A stretch of DNA of 64,000 nucleotides. Source: Escherichia phage FP43. The position numbers were made by a program, and so were the translations under genes. Positions within the stretch are counted from its first letter, which is position 1; the number at the start of each line of letters is the position of its first letter. Location: sequence record MN648445; one strand, written 5' to 3'. Below the pieces are notes generated by a model. That model had not been told where the DNA came from. It searched no databases and saw nothing but the letters and a program-made list of their open reading frames with translations. This document shows, in pieces, positions 20,328-28,810 of the stretch.

Positions 20328-20576
20328 ATGATTAAACAATTACAACACGCTCTTGAACTGCAACGCAACGCATGGAATAACGGTCACGAAAACTACGGCG
20401 CGTCAATTGATGTTGAAGCCGAAGCACTGGAAATCCTGCGTTATTTCAAACACCTGAATCCTGCTCAGGCTACTCTGGCTTCTGAACTGGAAGCTAAAGA
20501 TGAATTGAAATATGCTAAGCCTCTGGCTTCTGCAGCACGCAAAGCAGTTCGTCATTTTGTTATTACCCTTAAATAA
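20328..20576 (+). CDS. rIII: Probable lysis inhibition accessory protein RIII
   Basis: 82-aa ORF at the position and size of T4 rIII. Confidence 0.65.
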   Translation: MIKQLQHALELQRNAWNNGHENYGASIDVEAEALEILRYFKHLNPAQATLASELEAKDELKYAKPLASAARKAVRHFVITLK

Positions 20577-20870
20577 GTTTTAGGTGATTCGCTACCTTAG
20601 TGCGGCTAGAAAATCGAGGAGCCGTCGAACTGTCTGATTAATGATTTGCGAATCATTATAGTTTTAAGACCCCGGCAGTTTTACGGTGTACCTCTTGAAT
20701 GTATTTTATACTATCACGCGTCAGAAAAAGGTTATCTGTCTAAGTCGTGGTTGGTATGATGACGGGTTTATGGTTATCCTGTCGTTAAATATCCAAAACC
20801 TATGTTCCCCTTGAGGGCTTGCGCAGGCAATGTCAATAAGTCCTGCATTTTCATTTAAAGAGAATTTATA

Positions 20871-21050
20871 ATGGCAAAACAAGCTAAAGCAAAGAAAGCA
20901 GTTGAAAAGAAAGTTGATGGTACCTCTAAACGCGCTGGATACAAGCGTGGGTCGAACTCTCGTATTAATCAAACAGTTGAGAAGATCATGCGCAGAGCAC
21001 GTGCAGTTCTTCGAGATGATGCTTCTCGTTTTGGAAAGGTTGTTGCATAA
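20871..21050 (+). CDS. Small lysine-rich basic protein (59 aa), unannotated in the ORF track
   Basis: ATG 20871 to TAA 21048-21050; MAKQAKAKKAVEKKVDGTSKRAGYKRGSNSRINQTVEKIMRRARAVLRDDASRFGKVVA; followed at 6 nt by a strong terminator. Confidence 0.45.
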   Translation: MAKQAKAKKAVEKKVDGTSKRAGYKRGSNSRINQTVEKIMRRARAVLRDDASRFGKVVA

Positions 21051-21055
21051 TTTTA

Positions 21056-21077
21056 GGGAGACTTCGGTCTCCCTTTT
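21056..21077 (+). terminator. Rho-independent terminator
   Basis: GGGAGAC-TTCG-GTCTCCC followed by TTTT; identical stem-loop to the gene 32 terminator. Confidence 0.75.
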
Positions 21078-21109
21078 GTGCGTTTAGGGCAGAAAAAGTT
21101 TAAAAAGAT

Positions 21110-21138
21110 GTTTACTCTCCTGTAGGATGTGTTACTAT
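21110..21138 (+). promoter_or_regulatory. Early promoter
   Basis: GTTTAC 21110-21115, 17-nt spacer, TGTGTTACTAT ending 21138. Confidence 0.6.
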
Positions 21139-21180
21139 AGACTTGTACCATCTAATCAATAAAACAACCTGGAGAACAAA

Positions 21181-21549
21181 ATGAAAATCAATCTGAACTC
21201 ATACATCAAATGTAAAGACCACGACGGTTATAAAGCTATCGAAATTAAAGAATTCCAGTGGATGTTATACAAAGAGCAATTTGAGATCGTAAGTTGTATG
21301 ACCCCTGAAGGTCCTTCAAATGATTTCTCTTGGAAAATTGTGTTAGCAAACTTTTTCACAGGTGACACATACGAATTAAAAACTATTATTACAGGTAAAA
21401 TTCGCTCAGAAACATATGTTGACGAAGAAACTGGTTACTCTGAAGATGTCACATGGTATCAAAATGGACGCATTACAGCAGATAACCTGATCGAAAAAAT
21501 GAAAGCCAAAGGTGTTTTAAATTTAGACAATTGGATTAAAGTTGCATAA
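21181..21549 (+). CDS. Hypothetical protein
   Basis: 122-aa ORF with own promoter and RBS GGAG. Confidence 0.5.
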   Translation: MKINLNSYIKCKDHDGYKAIEIKEFQWMLYKEQFEIVSCMTPEGPSNDFSWKIVLANFFTGDTYELKTIITGKIRSETYVDEETGYSEDVTWYQNGRITADNLIEKMKAKGVLNLDNWIKVA

Positions 21550-21553
21550 AACA

Positions 21554-21593
21554 GTTTACTTTGGTACAGGTTATGTTATTATAGACCTGTACC
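21554..21593 (+). promoter_or_regulatory. Early promoter with -10 embedded in the loop of a perfect 8-bp inverted repeat
   Basis: GTTTAC 21554-21559; GGTACAGG (21563-21570) / CCTGTACC (21586-21593) flanking TTATGTTATTATAGA containing TATTAT. Confidence 0.6.
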
Positions 21594-21623
21594 AACAAAC
21601 AACTTAAACATCTGGAGAATAAA

Positions 21624-21989
21624 ATGAACTACATCAACTTCGAACGCAAATATGTTTCTAACGGTATCGCTGGTTCTTCTGAAGTTATTTGCTTATGGAA
21701 ACATAAAAATGGTTCAGTATGTGAAATTGAGCAGTATATGACTCCTAATTACGTTTATATGCGATTTGAAAATGGCATCACGGTTTCAATCACGATGGAA
21801 GGTTCCAACTTCAAAATTGCATTAGATGACGATTTCCGTCAGCGTGATTTAGGTACTCATCCTTGCTGGAATGGTGATAATCGTAAACTTCTGGTTAAAA
21901 CTTGGATTCGTCATATCCTGAGTAACCGAGCTAAACCTGAACATCTCGAAGCAATCTTTGATGTAGTTCTTAATGAATTCGATATCTAA
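21624..21989 (+). CDS. Hypothetical protein
   Basis: 121-aa ORF with RBS GGAG. Confidence 0.5.
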   Translation: MNYINFERKYVSNGIAGSSEVICLWKHKNGSVCEIEQYMTPNYVYMRFENGITVSITMEGSNFKIALDDDFRQRDLGTHPCWNGDNRKLLVKTWIRHILSNRAKPEHLEAIFDVVLNEFDI

Positions 21990-21997
21990 TTTAACTG

Positions 21998-22011
21998 GGA
22001 GCTTCGGCTCC
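21998..22011 (+). other. GC-rich UUCG-loop hairpin without U-tract
   Basis: GGAGC-TTCG-GCTCC between ORF 21624 stop and ORF 22025 RBS. Confidence 0.35.
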
Positions 22012-22024
22012 TACTGAGGAAATT

Positions 22025-22639
22025 ATGTTTAAAGTTAATACTTTTTATAAAATGAATTTTAAAAATGGGGATATTACTCCACGCCTTAAAAACATGTTCT
22101 CATATGACCTTATCGAGCCTTTTGAAGTTTTAGAAGTTACTGATGCCGGCTCAGTTTGTGAAATTAGAACTTCTGAAGGTAAAATTTATCAGGCAGGTGT
22201 CGGTAAATTCAGTAATTGTTTTACTTTAATATTCTCGACTGATTTAGATGAGCATTTTATTGAATGTCCTAACCCTAAGGTCTATGAAGTTCCACATCAA
22301 GAAATTAAGAAAAATGGACCGCACGAATATACGAAGGTTGAAACTCCTCACGGCGTGATGTGGCGTCATAACTCTCCTTTTGGAAGTAAAGGAACATTTG
22401 CTCAACTGGCTAAGCCCTACGACGATGAAAAATATGTAGTAGTCCTTTTATCTGAACAGGGTACTCAAGACCGTGGATGTCAACGAAGTGGTTTACTAAG
22501 TGAACTCGAAGCTCATAACCGAGCACGTGAATTCGTTGAGAAAAATCCTGGTTCTGAAGCTCTAGTCATGAAAGCAATTACTCAATATATCACTGCTCAA
22601 CCTGTTGTTCATCCGGTAGAAATTAATTTCATTAAGTAG
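22025..22639 (+). CDS. Hypothetical protein
   Basis: 204-aa ORF, RBS GAGGAAA. Confidence 0.5.
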   Translation: MFKVNTFYKMNFKNGDITPRLKNMFSYDLIEPFEVLEVTDAGSVCEIRTSEGKIYQAGVGKFSNCFTLIFSTDLDEHFIECPNPKVYEVPHQEIKKNGPHEYTKVETPHGVMWRHNSPFGSKGTFAQLAKPYDDEKYVVVLLSEQGTQDRGCQRSGLLSELEAHNRAREFVEKNPGSEALVMKAITQYITAQPVVHPVEINFIK

Positions 22640-22669
22640 TTTACATCCAAGGACGGATTAGAGTATAAT
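22639..22669 (+). promoter_or_regulatory. Early promoter
   Basis: GTTTAC 22639-22644 overlapping upstream stop codon, 19-nt spacer, TATAAT 22664-22669. Confidence 0.5.
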
Positions 22670-22695
22670 GATTTCTTTACTAAGTGGAAAAAAAT

Positions 22696-22893
22696 ATGAA
22701 ATTTTTAATAGCACAAACAGTCCAATTAAAAGGTGTTGGAATTCCTGGGGTGATTTTTAAAGTTCTCCCTGAATTTAAAACCAGCGCTGGAATTATCAAT
22801 GAAGCGTATGCTGTTCAATGGGTTGATTGGACTTCTGACATACGTATGGGTAAAGAGTTATCTCCTATTAAAGGGTTGAAACATGTTGAATAA
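22696..22893 (+). CDS. Hypothetical protein
   Basis: 65 aa from ATG 22696 (track starts at GTG 22684). Confidence 0.4.
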   Translation: MKFLIAQTVQLKGVGIPGVIFKVLPEFKTSAGIINEAYAVQWVDWTSDIRMGKELSPIKGLKHVE

Positions 22894-23095
22894 ATTAATC
22901 CAGAAATTGTTAGGTACAGAAATGGTTGAAGTTACGTATCGTGTGACTGATGTAAGCCCATGGACCCGAAAAGTTGAACCATATACTAAAACAATTAAAA
23001 TGCTGAAATATGACAGTGGATTATCTATCAAAGACCGTCTACCGGCTTATGGTCATTGGGCTGATGTTGAAATTATAAGTGTTAAAGATGTCTGA
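22883..23095 (+). CDS. Hypothetical protein
   Basis: 70-aa ORF overlapping neighbours at both ends. Confidence 0.4.
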   Translation: MLNKLIQKLLGTEMVEVTYRVTDVSPWTRKVEPYTKTIKMLKYDSGLSIKDRLPAYGHWADVEIISVKDV

Positions 23096-23546
23096 GTTAG
23101 AGATAAGAAGCAATTTCAAGTGGCCGTCATGTGCATTAAGTAACTTTGCTCAATGGCCTTTTGTTATGGATGGTATTCAATTCGGAGGTCTTGAAGGATT
23201 TCTCCAAGGATGTAAGGTGAAAAATGTTGAACAACAAAGACGTATATTTGGGTTGTCTGGATTGGCCGCACAGCAAGCTGGAAGGTCTTATGCAAGAGCT
23301 CAGGACCGTGGGACTCTCTTCTGGTTAGGAGTTCCATTTTCAAGATACTCCGAAGCGTGGAAAGAATTATACACAAATGCATATTTTGAAGCCGCGATCC
23401 AAAACAAGGGGTTTCGTGATGCCTTACAAGCCTCTAAAGGAAAAATTTTGAAGCACAGCATGGCCAGCCACCTAACAAAAGATGATACAATACTAACTGA
23501 AGATGAATTTATTGACGTGTTAAACCTATTAAGAGACTCTTTATGA
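23088..23546 (+). CDS. NADAR-domain (YbiA-like, DUF1768) protein; putative ADP-ribose-linked N-glycosidase / de-ADP-ribosylating hydrolase
   Basis: Motif LSNFAQWPFVMDGIQFGGLEGFLQGCKV parallels the YbiA-family signature FSNFAAWP..DG...SEHYFQAQKF as recalled; ATG 23088 overlaps upstream stop (alternative GTG start 23079); ATGA overlap with the downstream HAD ORF. Confidence 0.65.
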   Translation: MSELEIRSNFKWPSCALSNFAQWPFVMDGIQFGGLEGFLQGCKVKNVEQQRRIFGLSGLAAQQAGRSYARAQDRGTLFWLGVPFSRYSEAWKELYTNAYFEAAIQNKGFRDALQASKGKILKHSMASHLTKDDTILTEDEFIDVLNLLRDSL

Positions 23547-24358
23547 AGCCTACTATTTTGACTGATATTGATGGTGTATGTTTAAGTTGGCAATCTGGAC
23601 TTCCTTATTTTGCCCAAAAATATAATCTTCCATTAGAACATATTTTAAAAATGATTCAGGACGAAAAATTTATTTCTCCTGGTAAACTGTTCAATACCGA
23701 TGATAACCTCGGTAAACAATTAATAGAAAAATATAATCGCTCTGATTTTATTCGTTACTTAGCGCCTTATTCGGATGCTCTTCGAGTTATCAATAAACTA
23801 AAAGAAGACTATAATTTTGTAGCCGTGACGGCGCTAGGTGATTCAATTGATGCTCGATTGAATAGACAATTTAATTTGAATGCTTTGTTCCCAGGCGCTT
23901 TTTCTGAAGTAATGATGTGTGGTCATGATTCGTCAAAGGAACAATTATTCGAACTAGCTAAAACAAAATATAACGTGATTTGTTACGTTGACGATTTAGC
24001 TCATCACTGTGACCATGCGGCAGAAATTCTTAATGTACCGATTTATTGGTTGGCCCGTGGTGAACGTGATGATATTCCTCGCACTGCACAACGTGTACAC
24101 ACGTGGGATGATATTGAATCTCGTTTGGTTCCACCCGAGCATAATTCAGATTCAGATCGTGAAGACCTTTTAAAACGATTGGCGGATTTGCTTAAAGAAT
24201 CAGGTGCAACAAGCCCAGGTGCATGGCCTAATCAAATTGGCGCTCCGTCGAATCCGTATACTTGGCGAACTCCAGGACCAACCGATATGCAGCCATGGTG
24301 GACGATTCAAAACTTTCCTTTAGATTCGTCCAAATGGACTTGGTCTATAAATTGTTAA
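23543..24358 (+). CDS. HAD-superfamily phosphatase-like protein with Trp/Pro-rich C-terminal tail
   Basis: 271-aa ORF; N-terminal motif ILTDIDGV (HAD motif I, DxDG) and later YVDDL; C-terminal ~60 aa rich in W and P (PGAWPNQIGAPSNPYTWRTPGPTDMQPWWTIQNFP). Confidence 0.55.
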   Translation: MKPTILTDIDGVCLSWQSGLPYFAQKYNLPLEHILKMIQDEKFISPGKLFNTDDNLGKQLIEKYNRSDFIRYLAPYSDALRVINKLKEDYNFVAVTALGDSIDARLNRQFNLNALFPGAFSEVMMCGHDSSKEQLFELAKTKYNVICYVDDLAHHCDHAAEILNVPIYWLARGERDDIPRTAQRVHTWDDIESRLVPPEHNSDSDREDLLKRLADLLKESGATSPGAWPNQIGAPSNPYTWRTPGPTDMQPWWTIQNFPLDSSKWTWSINC

Positions 24359-24367
24359 GGGCTAATT

Positions 24368-24637
24368 ATGTTTGTAGTTCATGATATTACAGATGGCAAA
24401 AACACCACACGTGACTACGGTCATGTTAACATGTTCTTTCGAGACTGGCCGGTGTTTCGTTCAGTAAAAGACGCAGAAATATTTAAAGAGTGTGTTGAAC
24501 AAGGGTTCATCTACATTTCAGAATATTATGTTGAAGGACTCGGTAAATGGATTACCACTTATCAGAAAACGCTGAAATCGCTTCTAGATGAAGTGGCTTA
24601 TAATAGAACCGTAACCAAAATCGAGGACATCAAATGA
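24368..24637 (+). CDS. Hypothetical protein
   Basis: 89-aa ORF; ATGA overlap with DNA ligase start. Confidence 0.45.
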   Translation: MFVVHDITDGKNTTRDYGHVNMFFRDWPVFRSVKDAEIFKECVEQGFIYISEYYVEGLGKWITTYQKTLKSLLDEVAYNRTVTKIEDIK

Positions 24638-26127
24638 TTTTAGATATTTTAAACCAAATAGCTGCGATCGGTTCTACTAAAACAAAACAAGAAATCCTTA
24701 AGAAAAATAAGGACAACAAATTACTTGAACGTGTGTATCGTTTAACATATGCACGTGGTATCCAGTATTATATTAAGAAATGGCCAGGACCAGGTGAAAG
24801 GTCTCAAGCGTATGGTCTTCTTGAATTAGATGACATGTTGGATTTTATTGAGTTCACATTAGCCACTCGTAAACTCACTGGTAATGCTGCAATTAAAGAG
24901 CTCATGGGTTATATCGCTGACGGTAAACCTGATGATGTAGAAGTCCTTCGTCGTGTAATGATGCGAGACCTTGAAGTAGGTGCTTCAGTGTCTATCGCGA
25001 ATAAGGTGTGGCCTGGACTTATTCAATTGCAGCCACAGATGTTAGCATCTGCATATGATGAGAAATTGATTACTAAAAATATTAAATGGCCTGCATTTGC
25101 CCAATTAAAGGCAGATGGTGCTCGTTGTTTCGCTGAAGTTCGCGATGATGGCGTTCAATTCTTTTCTCGTGCCGGTAACGAATACCATGGTCTTACTCTA
25201 TTAGCAGATGAACTAATGGAAATGACTAAAGAAGCTCGTGAAAGACACCCTAATGGGGTTTTAATCGACGGTGAATTAGTTTATCATTCATTTGATATTA
25301 AAAAGGCTGTGAGCTCAGGAAATGACCTGTCGTTCTTATTTGGCGATAATGAAGAATCCGAAGAAGTACAAGTTGCAGACCGTAGCACTTCAAATGGTTT
25401 AGCAAATAAATCTCTTCAAGGGACTATTTCTCCTAAAGAAGCGGAAGGTATGGTTCTTCAAGCCTGGGACTATGTTCCTTTAGATGAAGTCTACTCTGAT
25501 GGCAAAATTAAAGGTCAGAAATACGATGTTCGTTTTGCTGCTCTTGAAAATATGGCTGAAGGCTTTAAGCGAATTGAGCCAATTGAAAATCAGTTAGTTC
25601 GTAATCTTGACGAAGCTAAAGTGGTTTATAAAAAATATGTTGACCAAGGTCTTGAAGGTATTATCCTTAAAAACCGTGATTCATATTGGGAAAACAAACG
25701 CTCTAAGAACCTAATTAAATTTAAAGAAGTTATTGATATCGCTTTAGAAGTTGTAGGATACTACGAACACTCTAAAGACCCTAACAAATTAGGTGGTGTC
25801 GAACTCGTATCACGTTGTCGTCGTATTACAACCGATTGTGGTTCAGGGTTTAAAGATACAACTCATAAAACAGTTGATGGTGTAAAGGTTCTTATTCCTT
25901 TAGATGAGCGTCATGATTTAGACCGTGAACGATTAATGGCTGAAGCTCGTGAAGGTAAATTGATTGGACGTATTGCTGATTGCGAATGTAATGGTTGGGT
26001 TCATTCTAAAGGACGTGAAGGCACTGTAGGTATTTTCCTTCCAATTATTAAAGGGTTCCGTTTTGATAAAACAGAAGCGGATTCATTTGAAGACGTATTT
26101 GGACCGTGGTCCCAGACAGGTTTATAA
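24634..26127 (+). CDS. 30: ATP-dependent DNA ligase
   Basis: 497-aa ORF MILDILNQIAAIGSTKTKQEILKKNKDNKLLERVYRLTY; adenylation lysine motif KADGAR; matches T4 ligase by recall. Confidence 0.95.
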   Translation: MILDILNQIAAIGSTKTKQEILKKNKDNKLLERVYRLTYARGIQYYIKKWPGPGERSQAYGLLELDDMLDFIEFTLATRKLTGNAAIKELMGYIADGKPDDVEVLRRVMMRDLEVGASVSIANKVWPGLIQLQPQMLASAYDEKLITKNIKWPAFAQLKADGARCFAEVRDDGVQFFSRAGNEYHGLTLLADELMEMTKEARERHPNGVLIDGELVYHSFDIKKAVSSGNDLSFLFGDNEESEEVQVADRSTSNGLANKSLQGTISPKEAEGMVLQAWDYVPLDEVYSDGKIKGQKYDVRFAALENMAEGFKRIEPIENQLVRNLDEAKVVYKKYVDQGLEGIILKNRDSYWENKRSKNLIKFKEVIDIALEVVGYYEHSKDPNKLGGVELVSRCRRITTDCGSGFKDTTHKTVDGVKVLIPLDERHDLDRERLMAEAREGKLIGRIADCECNGWVHSKGREGTVGIFLPIIKGFRFDKTEADSFEDVFGPWSQTGL

Positions 26128-26315
26128 TGAAAGCTTATTTAGAAACAGTTATTGTAGCTAAGAAGGATGGTGGAGATGTTTCCACCTCTTGCTCTCAGAT
26201 TATATTAGATTTTCCTAATAACGATTCCTATCATATTTTTATGGACAATTTCGATAAGTACGAAAAAGGCTCTAATTTTGAAGTTTATCGTACTTTGCTT
26301 CCGATTGTGGATTAA
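26127..26315 (+). CDS. Hypothetical protein
   Basis: 62 aa from ATG 26127 (TAATG overlap with ligase stop). Confidence 0.4.
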   Translation: MKAYLETVIVAKKDGGDVSTSCSQIILDFPNNDSYHIFMDNFDKYEKGSNFEVYRTLLPIVD

Positions 26316-26334
26316 GAGCCTTCGGGCTCTTTTT
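26315..26334 (+). terminator. Rho-independent terminator
   Basis: AGAGCC-TTCG-GGCTCT followed by TTTT. Confidence 0.7.
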
Positions 26335-26370
26335 GGCATAAATATAAATTATTACTAAAAGGAAAACACT

Positions 26371-28458
26371 ATGTCTGAACAATTAAATGAAGTGTTTGAA
26401 TCTGAAGGCAGTCTTCCTGTCGTCAATTTGAACCCTAAAGCTAAAGTTCCACAAGTCTGGAAAATTGGTGATATCGATACAAATATTGTAGTTCGTTTAT
26501 TCTCTTACCTTTCCGAAGGCGACGCTGTAAAACAAGTTAAACTTGGCGACAAATACGCTCATGTTGTTATTATGAGTCTGTCTGAAAAGGGTAATCTCGC
26601 TGAATTGAAAAATGGCCTTGGTCCTGCTCCTATTGATGCAATCAACACCATTTTCAATACAGTGTATGAACAGGTTAAAGCTCTTCGTATGGATGCAGTT
26701 CTGTTCCGATTCCCTACCAAGAAATTGAAAGGACGTGGACAACAACTTCAAACTCTTCTTGCTCGTCTAGTTTCTACTAAAACCGGTGGTCGTTTTAAAG
26801 TATTGTCTGCAATGTATCAATTCACAGGTAAACACACCTATGTGATGATGGTTCGTAAAAATGCCAACATTGAAGATATTAAAGGCATCCCTAACATTAA
26901 CACAGAGTTGTACACGAAAGTAGATTCTGATGTTGGCGAAGTTTATGTGAGTAAAAAGACTGGTGAAAAGGTCACCAAAGAAACGGCTATCGCTGGTTCT
27001 ATTGCTGCTGTAGAAGAAAAACGTAAAGATAAGCCTGTTATTGCTCGTACTAAAATTTCTCGTCGTGCTATTGCAGCAAGTCAATCTTTAGAAGCTGACC
27101 GACAAGAAGGTGAGTTATTCCAGAAATACGAAAATTCTGCTAAAGAAGTTAGTGGCCCGGCTACAGCTGAATTACTTCCTGAAGCATATGAAATTGTACT
27201 AGCCCAAGCATCGTCCACAGCAAAAGGCACTTTAGTTGCTGATATCGAAAATAAGATTTATAATCGTATTGATGAATCCTTTAAATTTGCCGATGAAGTT
27301 TCTTATGGTAGTGTTATTAAGCCGACTTTAGAAAAGTTTGCTAAGAAAATTAAAACTGAAAAAACAACATCTGTTAAAGCATTATCTGCTTTTGTTGAAG
27401 CTGCAAATGAAATTGCAGACTCTATTAAAGACGAATGGTTTGAAGATTTTAGACGTGATAATTTCCAACTGCCTGACGACGTTTTAGCTGAAGTATCTGA
27501 AAGAACTTGGAAACAACGTAAATCAGCGTTCTTGTCTAATGTGATGTATACTTATGCCCGAGAATCGGCTAGAGGCACCTTTAATATAACAATGAATCGG
27601 GACCCTAAACAATACTCTGTTGCTGAAAAACGAGCTATTCGTGAATATGCCTCTTCTGCGTATACCGATATCAATAATATGTTGTTAGGTCGTTATAAAC
27701 CGGATTTTTATGATGTTGCGGATGAAGATGAAGTTAAACGCGCTATTGATGGTCTTGATTCGGCGTTTTTAAATGGAGACCGTTTACCTGAAGGACTAAC
27801 GTTATATAGAGCTCAGTCTATCAGAATGCCTATTTACGAAGCAATGGTTAAAAATAAGGTATTCTACTTCAGAAACTATGTTTCCACTTCACTAGCTCCT
27901 ATTATTTTCGGTGGGTTTAAAGAGAACGTTGCCCTTGGACTTGCTCCTGAAGAAGTTCGCAAAGAGCTTAACATTGACAATAATGACGAAGGTGTTACTA
28001 TTTCTCCTAGTCAAGTAAGAACAGCTATGCATGCACCAGAACAAATCCGTGTTAACGTTGGATGGGCTATTGATGGCGCCCATAAAGTTAACGTGATTTA
28101 TCCAGGACAGTTGAGTAATCACCCTAATGAGCAAGAAATTATTTTGCCTAGAGGCATTCTCTTGCAGATAAATAAAATTACAGATGCGTCATCTGATACT
28201 GGTGCAGGTTTAGAATCCAACCTTAAATTTATTCAAGCTGAAGTTATGTCCTCAGACCAGTTGGATGAAGCCGTCATTTATGATGGTGATGTTCTCATGG
28301 AAACAGGCGAGGTGGTTGCTATGACGGGTGAAATCGAATCAGATGAGCCGGTATCGTTCTCCTCATTTGTAGAAAAAACTAGTGCACCTAAAGGTTTGAA
28401 ATTGTTAGCATCTTTAATGGATTTAGAATCAGTTCCGTTTAAATTTGTCCAAGGATAG
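26371..28458 (+). CDS. alt: ADP-ribosyltransferase Alt
   Basis: 695-aa ORF; C-terminal region with ART-like segment (GLTLYRAQS, VFYFRNYVSTSL); C-terminus MPYKFVQG-like ending (SVPFKFVQG); synteny next to gene 30. Confidence 0.85.
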   Translation: MSEQLNEVFESEGSLPVVNLNPKAKVPQVWKIGDIDTNIVVRLFSYLSEGDAVKQVKLGDKYAHVVIMSLSEKGNLAELKNGLGPAPIDAINTIFNTVYEQVKALRMDAVLFRFPTKKLKGRGQQLQTLLARLVSTKTGGRFKVLSAMYQFTGKHTYVMMVRKNANIEDIKGIPNINTELYTKVDSDVGEVYVSKKTGEKVTKETAIAGSIAAVEEKRKDKPVIARTKISRRAIAASQSLEADRQEGELFQKYENSAKEVSGPATAELLPEAYEIVLAQASSTAKGTLVADIENKIYNRIDESFKFADEVSYGSVIKPTLEKFAKKIKTEKTTSVKALSAFVEAANEIADSIKDEWFEDFRRDNFQLPDDVLAEVSERTWKQRKSAFLSNVMYTYARESARGTFNITMNRDPKQYSVAEKRAIREYASSAYTDINNMLLGRYKPDFYDVADEDEVKRAIDGLDSAFLNGDRLPEGLTLYRAQSIRMPIYEAMVKNKVFYFRNYVSTSLAPIIFGGFKENVALGLAPEEVRKELNIDNNDEGVTISPSQVRTAMHAPEQIRVNVGWAIDGAHKVNVIYPGQLSNHPNEQEIILPRGILLQINKITDASSDTGAGLESNLKFIQAEVMSSDQLDEAVIYDGDVLMETGEVVAMTGEIESDEPVSFSSFVEKTSAPKGLKLLASLMDLESVPFKFVQG

Positions 28459-28487
28459 TTTACAAACACATGGATGTGTGATACTAT
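28458..28487 (+). promoter_or_regulatory. Early promoter
   Basis: GTTTAC 28458-28463 overlapping alt stop, 18-nt spacer, TGTGATACTAT; leader CAACAACATGAGGAAA. Confidence 0.6.
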
Positions 28488-28516
28488 CATCCCATCAACA
28501 ACATGAGGAAAACGTT

Positions 28517-28810
28517 ATGAAATCTATGCTTCGCTTTAATGGTCAAGAACTAGTAGTTGAAGATGCTATCCCAGCGGATGATGTTTTTAACGAAGCTGTG
28601 ATTGACGAATTGAATCGAGTATTCCCGGGTGCATTCCATATTGCTATGGAACCTCTTAAAAACTTTCGTGACCCTGAGCACACTGATCAAATTTTTATCG
28701 GTGTACTGACAGGTCATTTAGAAACAGAGGTACCAATGGTCGTATTAGTTAAATACTCTAAAGATGATACTCCATTCCGAGCACCAGCATTTCTTTCATT
28801 CCGTAAATAA
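28517..28810 (+). CDS. Hypothetical protein
   Basis: 97 aa from ATG 28517; track ORF starts at upstream in-frame ATG 28445 that overlaps alt. Confidence 0.45.
   Translation: MKSMLRFNGQELVVEDAIPADDVFNEAVIDELNRVFPGAFHIAMEPLKNFRDPEHTDQIFIGVLTGHLETEVPMVVLVKYSKDDTPFRAPAFLSFRK

Follow-up and report, generated by a model that had tools for sequence, protein, structure and literature searches.

The genes that lead up to and just past the DNA ligase gene of Escherichia phage FP43 (MN648445) were analyzed in a stretch of 64,000 nucleotides (nt), referred to here as the window; coordinates are positions in this window, and the genes, promoter elements and terminator-like hairpin discussed are on its plus strand. 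Judging from its sequence, the window is that of an RB69-like T-even phage (Mosigvirus), and the block is the long-known T4 gene set ahead of the DNA ligase gene, i.e., 30.5-30.4-adfN(30.3)-30.2-30.1-30-alt.1. We consider it likely that this block is a compact unit, the products of which do not act in one pathway. The original prediction for this region had proposed an end-processing or de-modification module, in which a base or end adduct is removed, an end is dephosphorylated and the strand is then ligated. Removal of a base adduct is supported, as the NADAR protein encoded by adfN acts on such an adduct; the three-step pathway is not, as this reaction would leave intact guanine and the NADAR gene stands beside the HAD phosphatase-like gene in only 18 of 76 loci. 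Because AdfN would restore unmodified guanine in an unbroken strand, nothing would be left to dephosphorylate or to seal, and this chemistry, together with the loose linkage of the NADAR gene in the locus counts, makes a sequential pathway unlikely.

The region from 22000 to 26400 was found to be 97-98% identical at the DNA level to Mosigvirus/Escherichia phage genomes (139 records span 80% or more of the query), and both gene order and gene names match T4 and annotated relatives (30.5-30.4-30.3-30.2-30.1-30-alt.1). The six open reading frames (ORFs) of the original prediction were all found at the predicted starts and were identified by sequence as T4 genes 30.5, 30.4, 30.3, 30.2, 30.1 and 30; because each belongs to a protein family, these are not chance ORFs. 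Gene 30.5 (22696..22893; 65 amino acids; phrog_1690, E = 2.5e-28), which carries this name in relatives, and gene 30.4 (22883..23095; 70 amino acids; phrog_2042, E = 4.5e-34) have no assigned function. They are followed by gene 30.3 or adfN (23088..23546), encoding a NADAR protein of 152 amino acids (PF08010, E = 2.1e-69), by gene 30.2 (23543..24358), encoding an HAD-superfamily phosphatase-like protein (phrog_420, E = 7.7e-79), and by gene 30.1 (24368..24637), encoding a DUF3045 protein of 89 amino acids with no assigned function (PF11243, E = 1.1e-26). Gene 30 (24634..26127) encodes an ATP-dependent DNA ligase of 497 amino acids (PF01068, E = 2.1e-26; phrog_114, E = 3.3e-155), and a seventh coupled ORF, alt.1 (26127..26315), encodes a 62 amino acid protein that matches Pfam Phage_blade (E = 1.7e-29). 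The next gene, alt (26371-28458), is named in annotated relatives and in T4. No above-threshold family was found in Pfam or NCBIfam for gp30.2, gp30.4, gp30.5 or the product of a 204-codon ORF located upstream of the block, and searches of PDB sequences with the single sequences of gp30.3, gp30.1 and alt.1 yielded zero matches. The original prediction had pointed to small 30.x ORFs at this position in T4, and comparison with T4 (NC_000866, 125560-129158) showed the same genes, 30.5 to 30 plus alt.1, in the same order and on one strand, the only difference in gene content being the 204-codon ORF that replaces 30.6.

The NADAR protein AdfN

The assignment of gp30.3 as a NADAR protein in the original prediction agrees with Pfam, with the predicted fold and with the catalytic residues. 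The protein scores 232.1 bits against PF08010 (Phage_30_3; cut-off 36), PF08719 (NADAR) is also matched by 16 of the 41 gp30.3 family members (best E = 1.5e-7), and a search with the family profile retrieves YbiA of E. coli (2b3w; E = 0.003). The predicted structure, which has a predicted local distance difference test (pLDDT) score of 94.6, shows the NADAR alpha+beta fold, and the top three PDB matches of this model are YbiA (E = 6.6e-5, template modeling score 0.67), the Phytophthora PnNADAR (8bau) and a Geobacter NADAR (8bat). Residues E36, K43 and H123, which are invariant in the 41 sequences, are present in the window protein; in T4 AdfN, E36 and K43 are the catalytic Glu and Lys, and H123 is the phage-type His of the last strand (PMC11825919, PMC11125620). 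The C-terminal helix is intact, with the protein being 152 amino acids long and ending in LLRDSL like that of T4. Sequence and structural model thus place gp30.3 in the NADAR superfamily, phage gp30.3/AdfN subfamily. Compared with T4 AdfN and the DarG1-type NADAR antitoxins, the window protein has the NADAR fold, E36, K43, the phage-type His and the C-terminal helix, but neither a DarG1-type N-terminal extension nor a cognate toxin gene.

T4 gp30.3 strips ADP-ribose from guanine in DNA in vitro (PMC11125620); it has been named AdfN (anti-DarT factor NADAR) and is necessary and sufficient for the resistance of T-even phages to the DarTG1 defense system (PMC11825919). Given the 96% identity between the window protein and T4 AdfN, we infer that this allele has the same activity and confers the same resistance. 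AdfN would represent a counter-defense enzyme that hydrolyzes the N-glycosidic bond between guanine and an ADP-ribose placed on phage DNA by host DarT1, a reaction that would restore normal DNA. In RB69, a phage of the same genus, the allele is truncated and inactive and the phage is sensitive to DarTG1 (PMC11825919). In the RB69 sequence, an extra T (AACTTGAAG) was found to truncate the protein by 15 residues (L160 8268-8681) and to leave 42 nt between 30.3 and 30.2. The window, by contrast, carries an intact allele without this extra T, and the phage is therefore predicted to be resistant to DarTG1.

Some further observations concern this gene. In PQ480333, the gp30.3 homologue (L162 1687-2145) is labeled 'virion structural protein'; T4 gp30.3 falls into the late protein class despite its early RNA, and frequent packaging of myovirus NADARs has been proposed in a published survey. 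The gene for the ADP-ribosyltransferase Alt (26371-28458) is located 2.8 kb downstream of adfN, with no evidence of a functional link seen. Alt modifies a protein, and the NADAR enzymes tested hydrolyzed guanine-linked but not thymidine-linked ADP-ribose. An out-of-frame ORF inside 30.3, 30.3', which has 75 codons in T4, has a homologous start in the window but reaches a stop after 34 codons (23224-23328), which argues against 30.3' being a conserved gene.

Junctions, 3' end and promoters of the block

The coupled run comprises seven genes, all on one strand, with overlapping or abutting stops and starts and with no internal terminator. The overlapping or near-abutting junctions that had been predicted between the first six ORFs were all found, with spacings of -11, -8, -4, +9 and -4 nt. 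The 30.5/30.4 overlap of 11 nt was read from the sequence, the 30.4/30.3 overlap of 8 nt reads ATGTCTGA, the 30.3/30.2 and 30.1/30 junctions are ATGA overlaps of 4 nt each, and the 9 nt gap between 30.2 and 30.1 contains AAGGG; at the additional ligase/alt.1 junction, TAATG, the overlap with the ligase stop is one base. Junctions in T4 are equally tight (overlaps of 4, 8, 4, 1, 4 and 4 nt), with the packing extending upstream to 30.6 and with a 1 nt overlap at 30.2/30.1 where the window has its gap. By our own count, 13 of the 21 junctions in the T4 interval from cd.5 to alt are tight. As T-even early regions commonly have such tight junctions, overlaps alone do not single out a functional module; they are the mark of a compact transcription block and not necessarily of a functional pathway. 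The overlapping stops and starts would reflect the general packing of T-even early regions and probably let ribosomes pass from gene to gene.

With regard to the limits of the unit, the junctions predicted within 22684-26127 stood, but the end at 26127 did not, as alt.1 and a terminator-like hairpin extend the unit to approximately 26335. The hairpin, AAGAGCC-UUCG-GGCUCUU followed by a T-run (26314..26334; -14.2 kcal/mol, z = -3.4), was not flagged by a simple terminator scan and was recovered by direct folding; it is an annotated terminator in PQ480333, a phage that is 97% identical. This hairpin and T-run after alt.1 indicate that the unit ends near 26335, and the hairpin is the probable 3' end on sequence grounds.

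A single early promoter at 22639-22669 had been predicted upstream of the six ORFs. The motif itself is present, as a candidate promoter of the sigma-70/early type (TTTACA-N18-TATAAT) was found at 22640..22669, where it scores higher as a sigma-70 match than any other site in 20500-28600 (11 of 12 positions) and carries a promoter annotation in a phage with 97% identity. The number of promoter-like matches across this region does not exceed that in shuffled sequences (28 vs. 24.6 ± 5.1), and the motif alone therefore is weak evidence. Its designation as the single promoter was not supported, and it is unlikely that 22640-22669 is the sole promoter of the block. A further candidate of the T4 early type (GTTTAC ... 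TGTTATTAT) is located at 21554..21582 between 30.8 and 30.7, with a homologous site being annotated in SA79RD; between this site and the block only a weak hairpin and no strong terminator was found, and transcripts starting there could extend into the block. Two MotA-dependent middle promoters of T4, P30 and P30.2, have been mapped inside the block (table in PMC2988021, citing Truncaite et al. 2002). According to this review table, from which the T4 promoter positions were taken, P30 starts at 127234 inside 30.1, 26 nt ahead of the ligase start, and P30.2 starts at 128355 inside 30.3, 45 nt ahead of the 30.2 start (PMC2988021). Alignment with T4 identified a homologue of P30 (GCTT-N15-TATAAT) with the same spacing inside 30.1 at 24580..24604; the predicted start is near 24611, 23 nt ahead of the ligase ATG, and the SA79RD annotation has a middle promoter here. 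The -10 element homologous to that of P30.2, TACAAT, was aligned to 23486..23491 inside 30.3. By homology and motif, the conserved P30 elements and the additional early-type promoter upstream speak against the block having only one promoter.

Omics data for T4 class the RNAs of all seven genes as early, and the proteins as early (30.5 and 30.4), middle (30.2, 30.1, 30 and alt.1) or late (30.3) (PMC9697503 supplement). The block could be a compact polycistronic unit that is transcribed from an early-type promoter just upstream, with read-through from further upstream probably adding transcription. Judging from T4 homology, MotA-dependent middle promoters within the block may also be active, including at least one just ahead of the ligase gene.

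The 204-codon ORF upstream of the block (22025..22639; phrog_17531) occupies the position of T4 gene 30.6 and is outside the coupled run. It stands in for 30.6 in this phage and close relatives and is unrelated to 30.6; residues 1-100 of its product show a weak resemblance to phrog_8920 and phrog_622, with no Pfam match. The promoter-like site at 22640-22669 accompanies this ORF ahead of 30.5; the site is absent from the corresponding junction in T4, where 30.6 overlaps 30.5. RB69 lacks 30.5 and carries 30.6 where the window has the 204-codon ORF. Directly ahead of the ribosome-binding region (TACTGAGG) of this ORF, a GC hairpin with a 4-base loop was found (GGAGC-TTCG-GCTCC, 21998-22027), and its T4 counterpart (GGGGC-TTCA-GCCCC, L002 5446-5487) is conserved despite a different downstream gene; the role of this hairpin may be in RNA stability or processing and not in termination.

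The HAD protein gp30.2 and its association with ligase

Motif I of gp30.2, ILTDIDGV, was found at residues 5-12 as predicted, and both of its Asp residues, D8 and D10, are conserved without exception in 37 close relatives and 48 distant ones. This motif has the form hhhDxDx(T/V), with the Asp+2 general acid typical of phosphotransferases. Motifs II (T96), III (K132) and IV (D150-D151) are invariant or nearly so across the same relatives, and further invariant residues are specific to the family (W16, Y64, N65, S67, R108 and N111). The core of the protein (residues 1-196) shows the HAD Rossmann-like fold, with a C1 helical cap at approximately residues 16-86, between motifs I and II. The unusual Trp/Pro-rich C-terminal tail noted in the original prediction is real; by our own count from the translation, Trp occurs 6 times and Pro 10 times in the final 75 residues. 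Apart from one predicted helix (203-219), this tail (197-271) is predicted to be disordered, with pLDDT values below 50 over residues 225-237, 255-260 and 264-271, and it is variable or absent in homologues.

The prior designation of gp30.2 as HAD-like agrees with these motifs and the fold and is judged correct, while the scores in profile searches stayed below the cut-offs (HAD_2, 15.5 bits with a cut-off of 23.8, E = 0.02; TIGR01428, 12.7 bits with a cut-off of 125). Among the 37 relatives, the best match to an HAD model was to Hydrolase, with an E value of 3.4e-4. Similarity to 5'(3')-deoxyribonucleotidases was found at the margin; 7 of the 37 close relatives match NT5C (PF06941) with E values of at least 0.002, distant family members come close to the cut-off of 24.8 bits with scores of 24.3 and 24.0, and a PDB sequence search gave weak matches only, to a deoxyribonucleotidase (E = 0.5-0.8). 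The structural matches 2jao, 3bwv and 6g2n are no better than those to other C1-capped HAD proteins. Compared with the C1-capped subfamily I deoxyribonucleotidases (NT5C; 2jao, 3bwv), gp30.2 is equally close to dehalogenases and sugar phosphatases, and it differs from NT5C and the Pfam HAD families in scoring under all cut-offs, in its own invariant residues and in its variable disordered tail. The gp30.2 family is, by sequence, a divergent, unmodeled branch of the HAD superfamily (phrog_420), with 1122 representatives at E values of at most 1e-3. A profile search of a set of 5.8 billion proteins with the gp30.2 alignment retrieved unannotated phage proteins only, and in larger proteins that contain this domain no informative second domain was found in Pfam; a DNA-polymerase-like N-terminal part found with PHROGs in one such protein is a single case and was not built upon. 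Searches of the literature on gp30.2, DUF3045 and DUF6433 returned nothing relevant. HAD proteins that have a C1 helical cap usually act on small molecules and not on DNA ends. Taking fold and motifs into consideration, gp30.2 may be a helically capped HAD phosphatase of the aspartyl-phosphate type that depends on Mg; most likely, its substrate would be a nucleotide or another small molecule, as for the 5'(3')-deoxyribonucleotidases.

DNA ligase seals nicks in replication and repair, and this is the function that gp30 would have here. The ligase assignment in the original prediction is consistent with PF01068 (93.3 bits, cut-off 26.2), with phrog_114 and with the KADG (KxDG) motif in the translation, and the N-terminal DNA-binding domain aligns with that of other T4-type ligases. 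In 61 of the 76 viral gp30.2 loci analyzed, a T4-type ligase gene is located at most 400 nt downstream, and in 9 more it is within 7 kb. The NADAR gene, on the other hand, adjoins the HAD gene in 18 of these loci; another 17 have it nearby, and in 41 the neighborhood lacks it. Likewise, gp30.2 or ligase is nearby in only about 20 of 80 gp30.3 loci. Therefore, HAD-(30.1)-ligase represents the stable pair and the NADAR gene a loosely attached passenger. Beyond ligase and gp30.2, no widespread neighbor family was found in the gp30.3 loci that could point to a partner of AdfN.

Beyond the T4-like enterobacterial phages, adjacency of the HAD gene and ligase is not universal, as a ligase catalytic core was found nearby in only 7 of 82 distant loci, in a search that used the closer subset of the alignment. 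Marine T4-like contigs show a conserved order of T4-type RNase H, DUF6433, HAD, a zinc-ribbon protein and PhoH. DUF6433 (PF20025), a stand-alone protein of about 140 amino acids, is homologous to the N-terminal DNA-binding domain of T4-type ligases (BLASTP E = 3e-5; hhalign 96.7%, E = 4.7e-10, 133 columns; reciprocal hidden Markov model matches) and is located upstream of the distant HAD homologue in 52 of 79 marine loci. Examples among the marine loci (L163-L242) are L233 (4457-4891) and L204 (4420-5716). Five loci also carry a short ligase without the N-domain, and this short ligase and DUF6433 could represent a split ligase. In the metagenomic cluster P0016 (302 amino acids, L161 234-1142), the gp30.2 HAD core is fused to gp30.1 (DUF3045), with a ligase gene 104 nt later; its motif I reads DIDDV, and as the fusion is in a single 1.4-kb contig, an assembly or frame error is possible. 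These arrangements suggest, without proving it, a functional tie between the gp30.2-type HAD family and ligase, with gp30.2 being the gene that has been kept beside the ligase gene, or beside a detached ligase N-domain, throughout the T4 superfamily.

Alternative readings and implications

Among the alternatives to a compact unit without a common pathway, one is that gp30.2, possibly with gp30.1, is an accessory to ligase that prepares ends, deals with a nucleotide by-product of sealing or primer removal, or binds the ligase N-domain; we regard this as unlikely. The HAD-(30.1)-ligase arrangement in 61 of 76 loci spans phages of Escherichia, Klebsiella, Acinetobacter, Aeromonas and Vibrio and persists while small neighboring ORFs come and go, and at 7 loci a 25% identical HAD gene is located 250-2600 nt upstream of a different, short type of ligase. 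The marine HAD genes near the DUF6433 ligase N-domain homologue and T4-type RNase H, as well as the gp30.2-gp30.1 fusion, point the same way. However, gene order is strongly kept among T4-like phages and adjacency may be inherited, a search up to 6 kb from the HAD gene found no catalytic core of a ligase at 75 of the 82 distant loci, and the fusion is known from one contig. There is a slight chance, of the same order, that a gp30.2-type HAD protein, perhaps with gp30.1, is an unrecognized partner of T4-type ligases, and it may also be the factor that AdfN is missing.

AdfN is active in vitro and when T-even phages infect their host; it fails to work in uninfected E. coli, and its help to T5 and Bas25 is weak (PMC11825919, PMC11125620); its discoverers have postulated a T-even factor needed for full activity (PMC11825919). 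That this factor is gp30.2 or a different small product of the block, acting for example by processing released ADP-ribose or by stabilizing or localizing AdfN, appears improbable. Consistent with it, adfN shares an ATGA overlap with 30.2 and the 8 nt overlap with 30.4, and adfN and 30.2 occur in almost identical sets of genomes. By contrast, adfN and 30.2 are far apart in most T4-like lineages, co-occurrence is the pattern expected of two widespread T4-like genes, and any of about 270 T-even genes is eligible. Genes 30.4 and 30.2, which overlap adfN, are the obvious candidates, but the evidence does not favor them specifically.

The pathway in which NADAR removes an adduct, HAD dephosphorylates the end and ligase seals it is the least probable of the readings and can be given hardly any credence: guanine de-ADP-ribosylation leaves neither a nick nor a terminal phosphate, NADAR seldom adjoins the HAD gene, T4 proteomics sets gp30.3 (late) apart from gp30.2, gp30.1 and gp30 (middle), the RB69 frameshift uncouples 30.3 from 30.2 and yet RB69 is viable, and gp30.2 is C1-capped, unlike the HAD phosphatases of polynucleotide ends, which are capless. 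What speaks for this pathway is that the three genes are consecutive and tightly packed, that NADAR does take off a DNA base adduct, that some phage NADARs occur as fusions with a phosphatase of another kind (DUF4326), and that HAD phosphatase domains heal 3'-phosphate ends in polynucleotide kinase-phosphatases. T4 Pnkp and RNA ligase 1 resemble the block in that an HAD-type phosphatase gene and a ligase gene occur in one phage genome region, but the block has no kinase domain, gp30.2 is capped, and there is no evidence for gp30.2 acting on nucleic acid.

Several points weigh against our preferred reading of a compact unit of unlinked products, in which gp30.2 is an HAD phosphatase with an old tie to ligase. 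The score of gp30.2 is below the curated cut-off of every Pfam and NCBIfam HAD model, and no experimental report on its activity or substrate was found in the literature searched. Promoter use in this phage is deduced from motifs and T4, and the MotA-box region upstream of the P30.2 element has diverged from that of T4. The phage genomes that encode gp30.3 are almost the same as those that encode gp30.2 (1510 and 1444 records, respectively), although this co-occurrence is expected, since both genes are widespread in T4-like phages. As AdfN needs a T-even factor, a partner for it may be encoded in the block, and the HAD and ligase genes could lie side by side because their order was inherited, not because they are functionally linked.

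The locus is textbook T4, and its most striking enzyme has already been published in 2024-25 as AdfN; the remaining interest rests on the HAD protein and its old association with ligase. For this Mosigvirus, the intact adfN, unlike that of the type phage RB69, indicates that the phage should resist DarTG1. The block is probably not a three-step repair pathway; rather, the conserved pairing is that of HAD with ligase, and it extends to marine T4-like phages in which a stand-alone homologue of the ligase N-domain is located near the HAD gene. The function of 30.2, one of approximately 100 uncharacterized T4 genes, thereby becomes directly testable, and the block yields a short list of neighboring candidates for the factor that AdfN requires.

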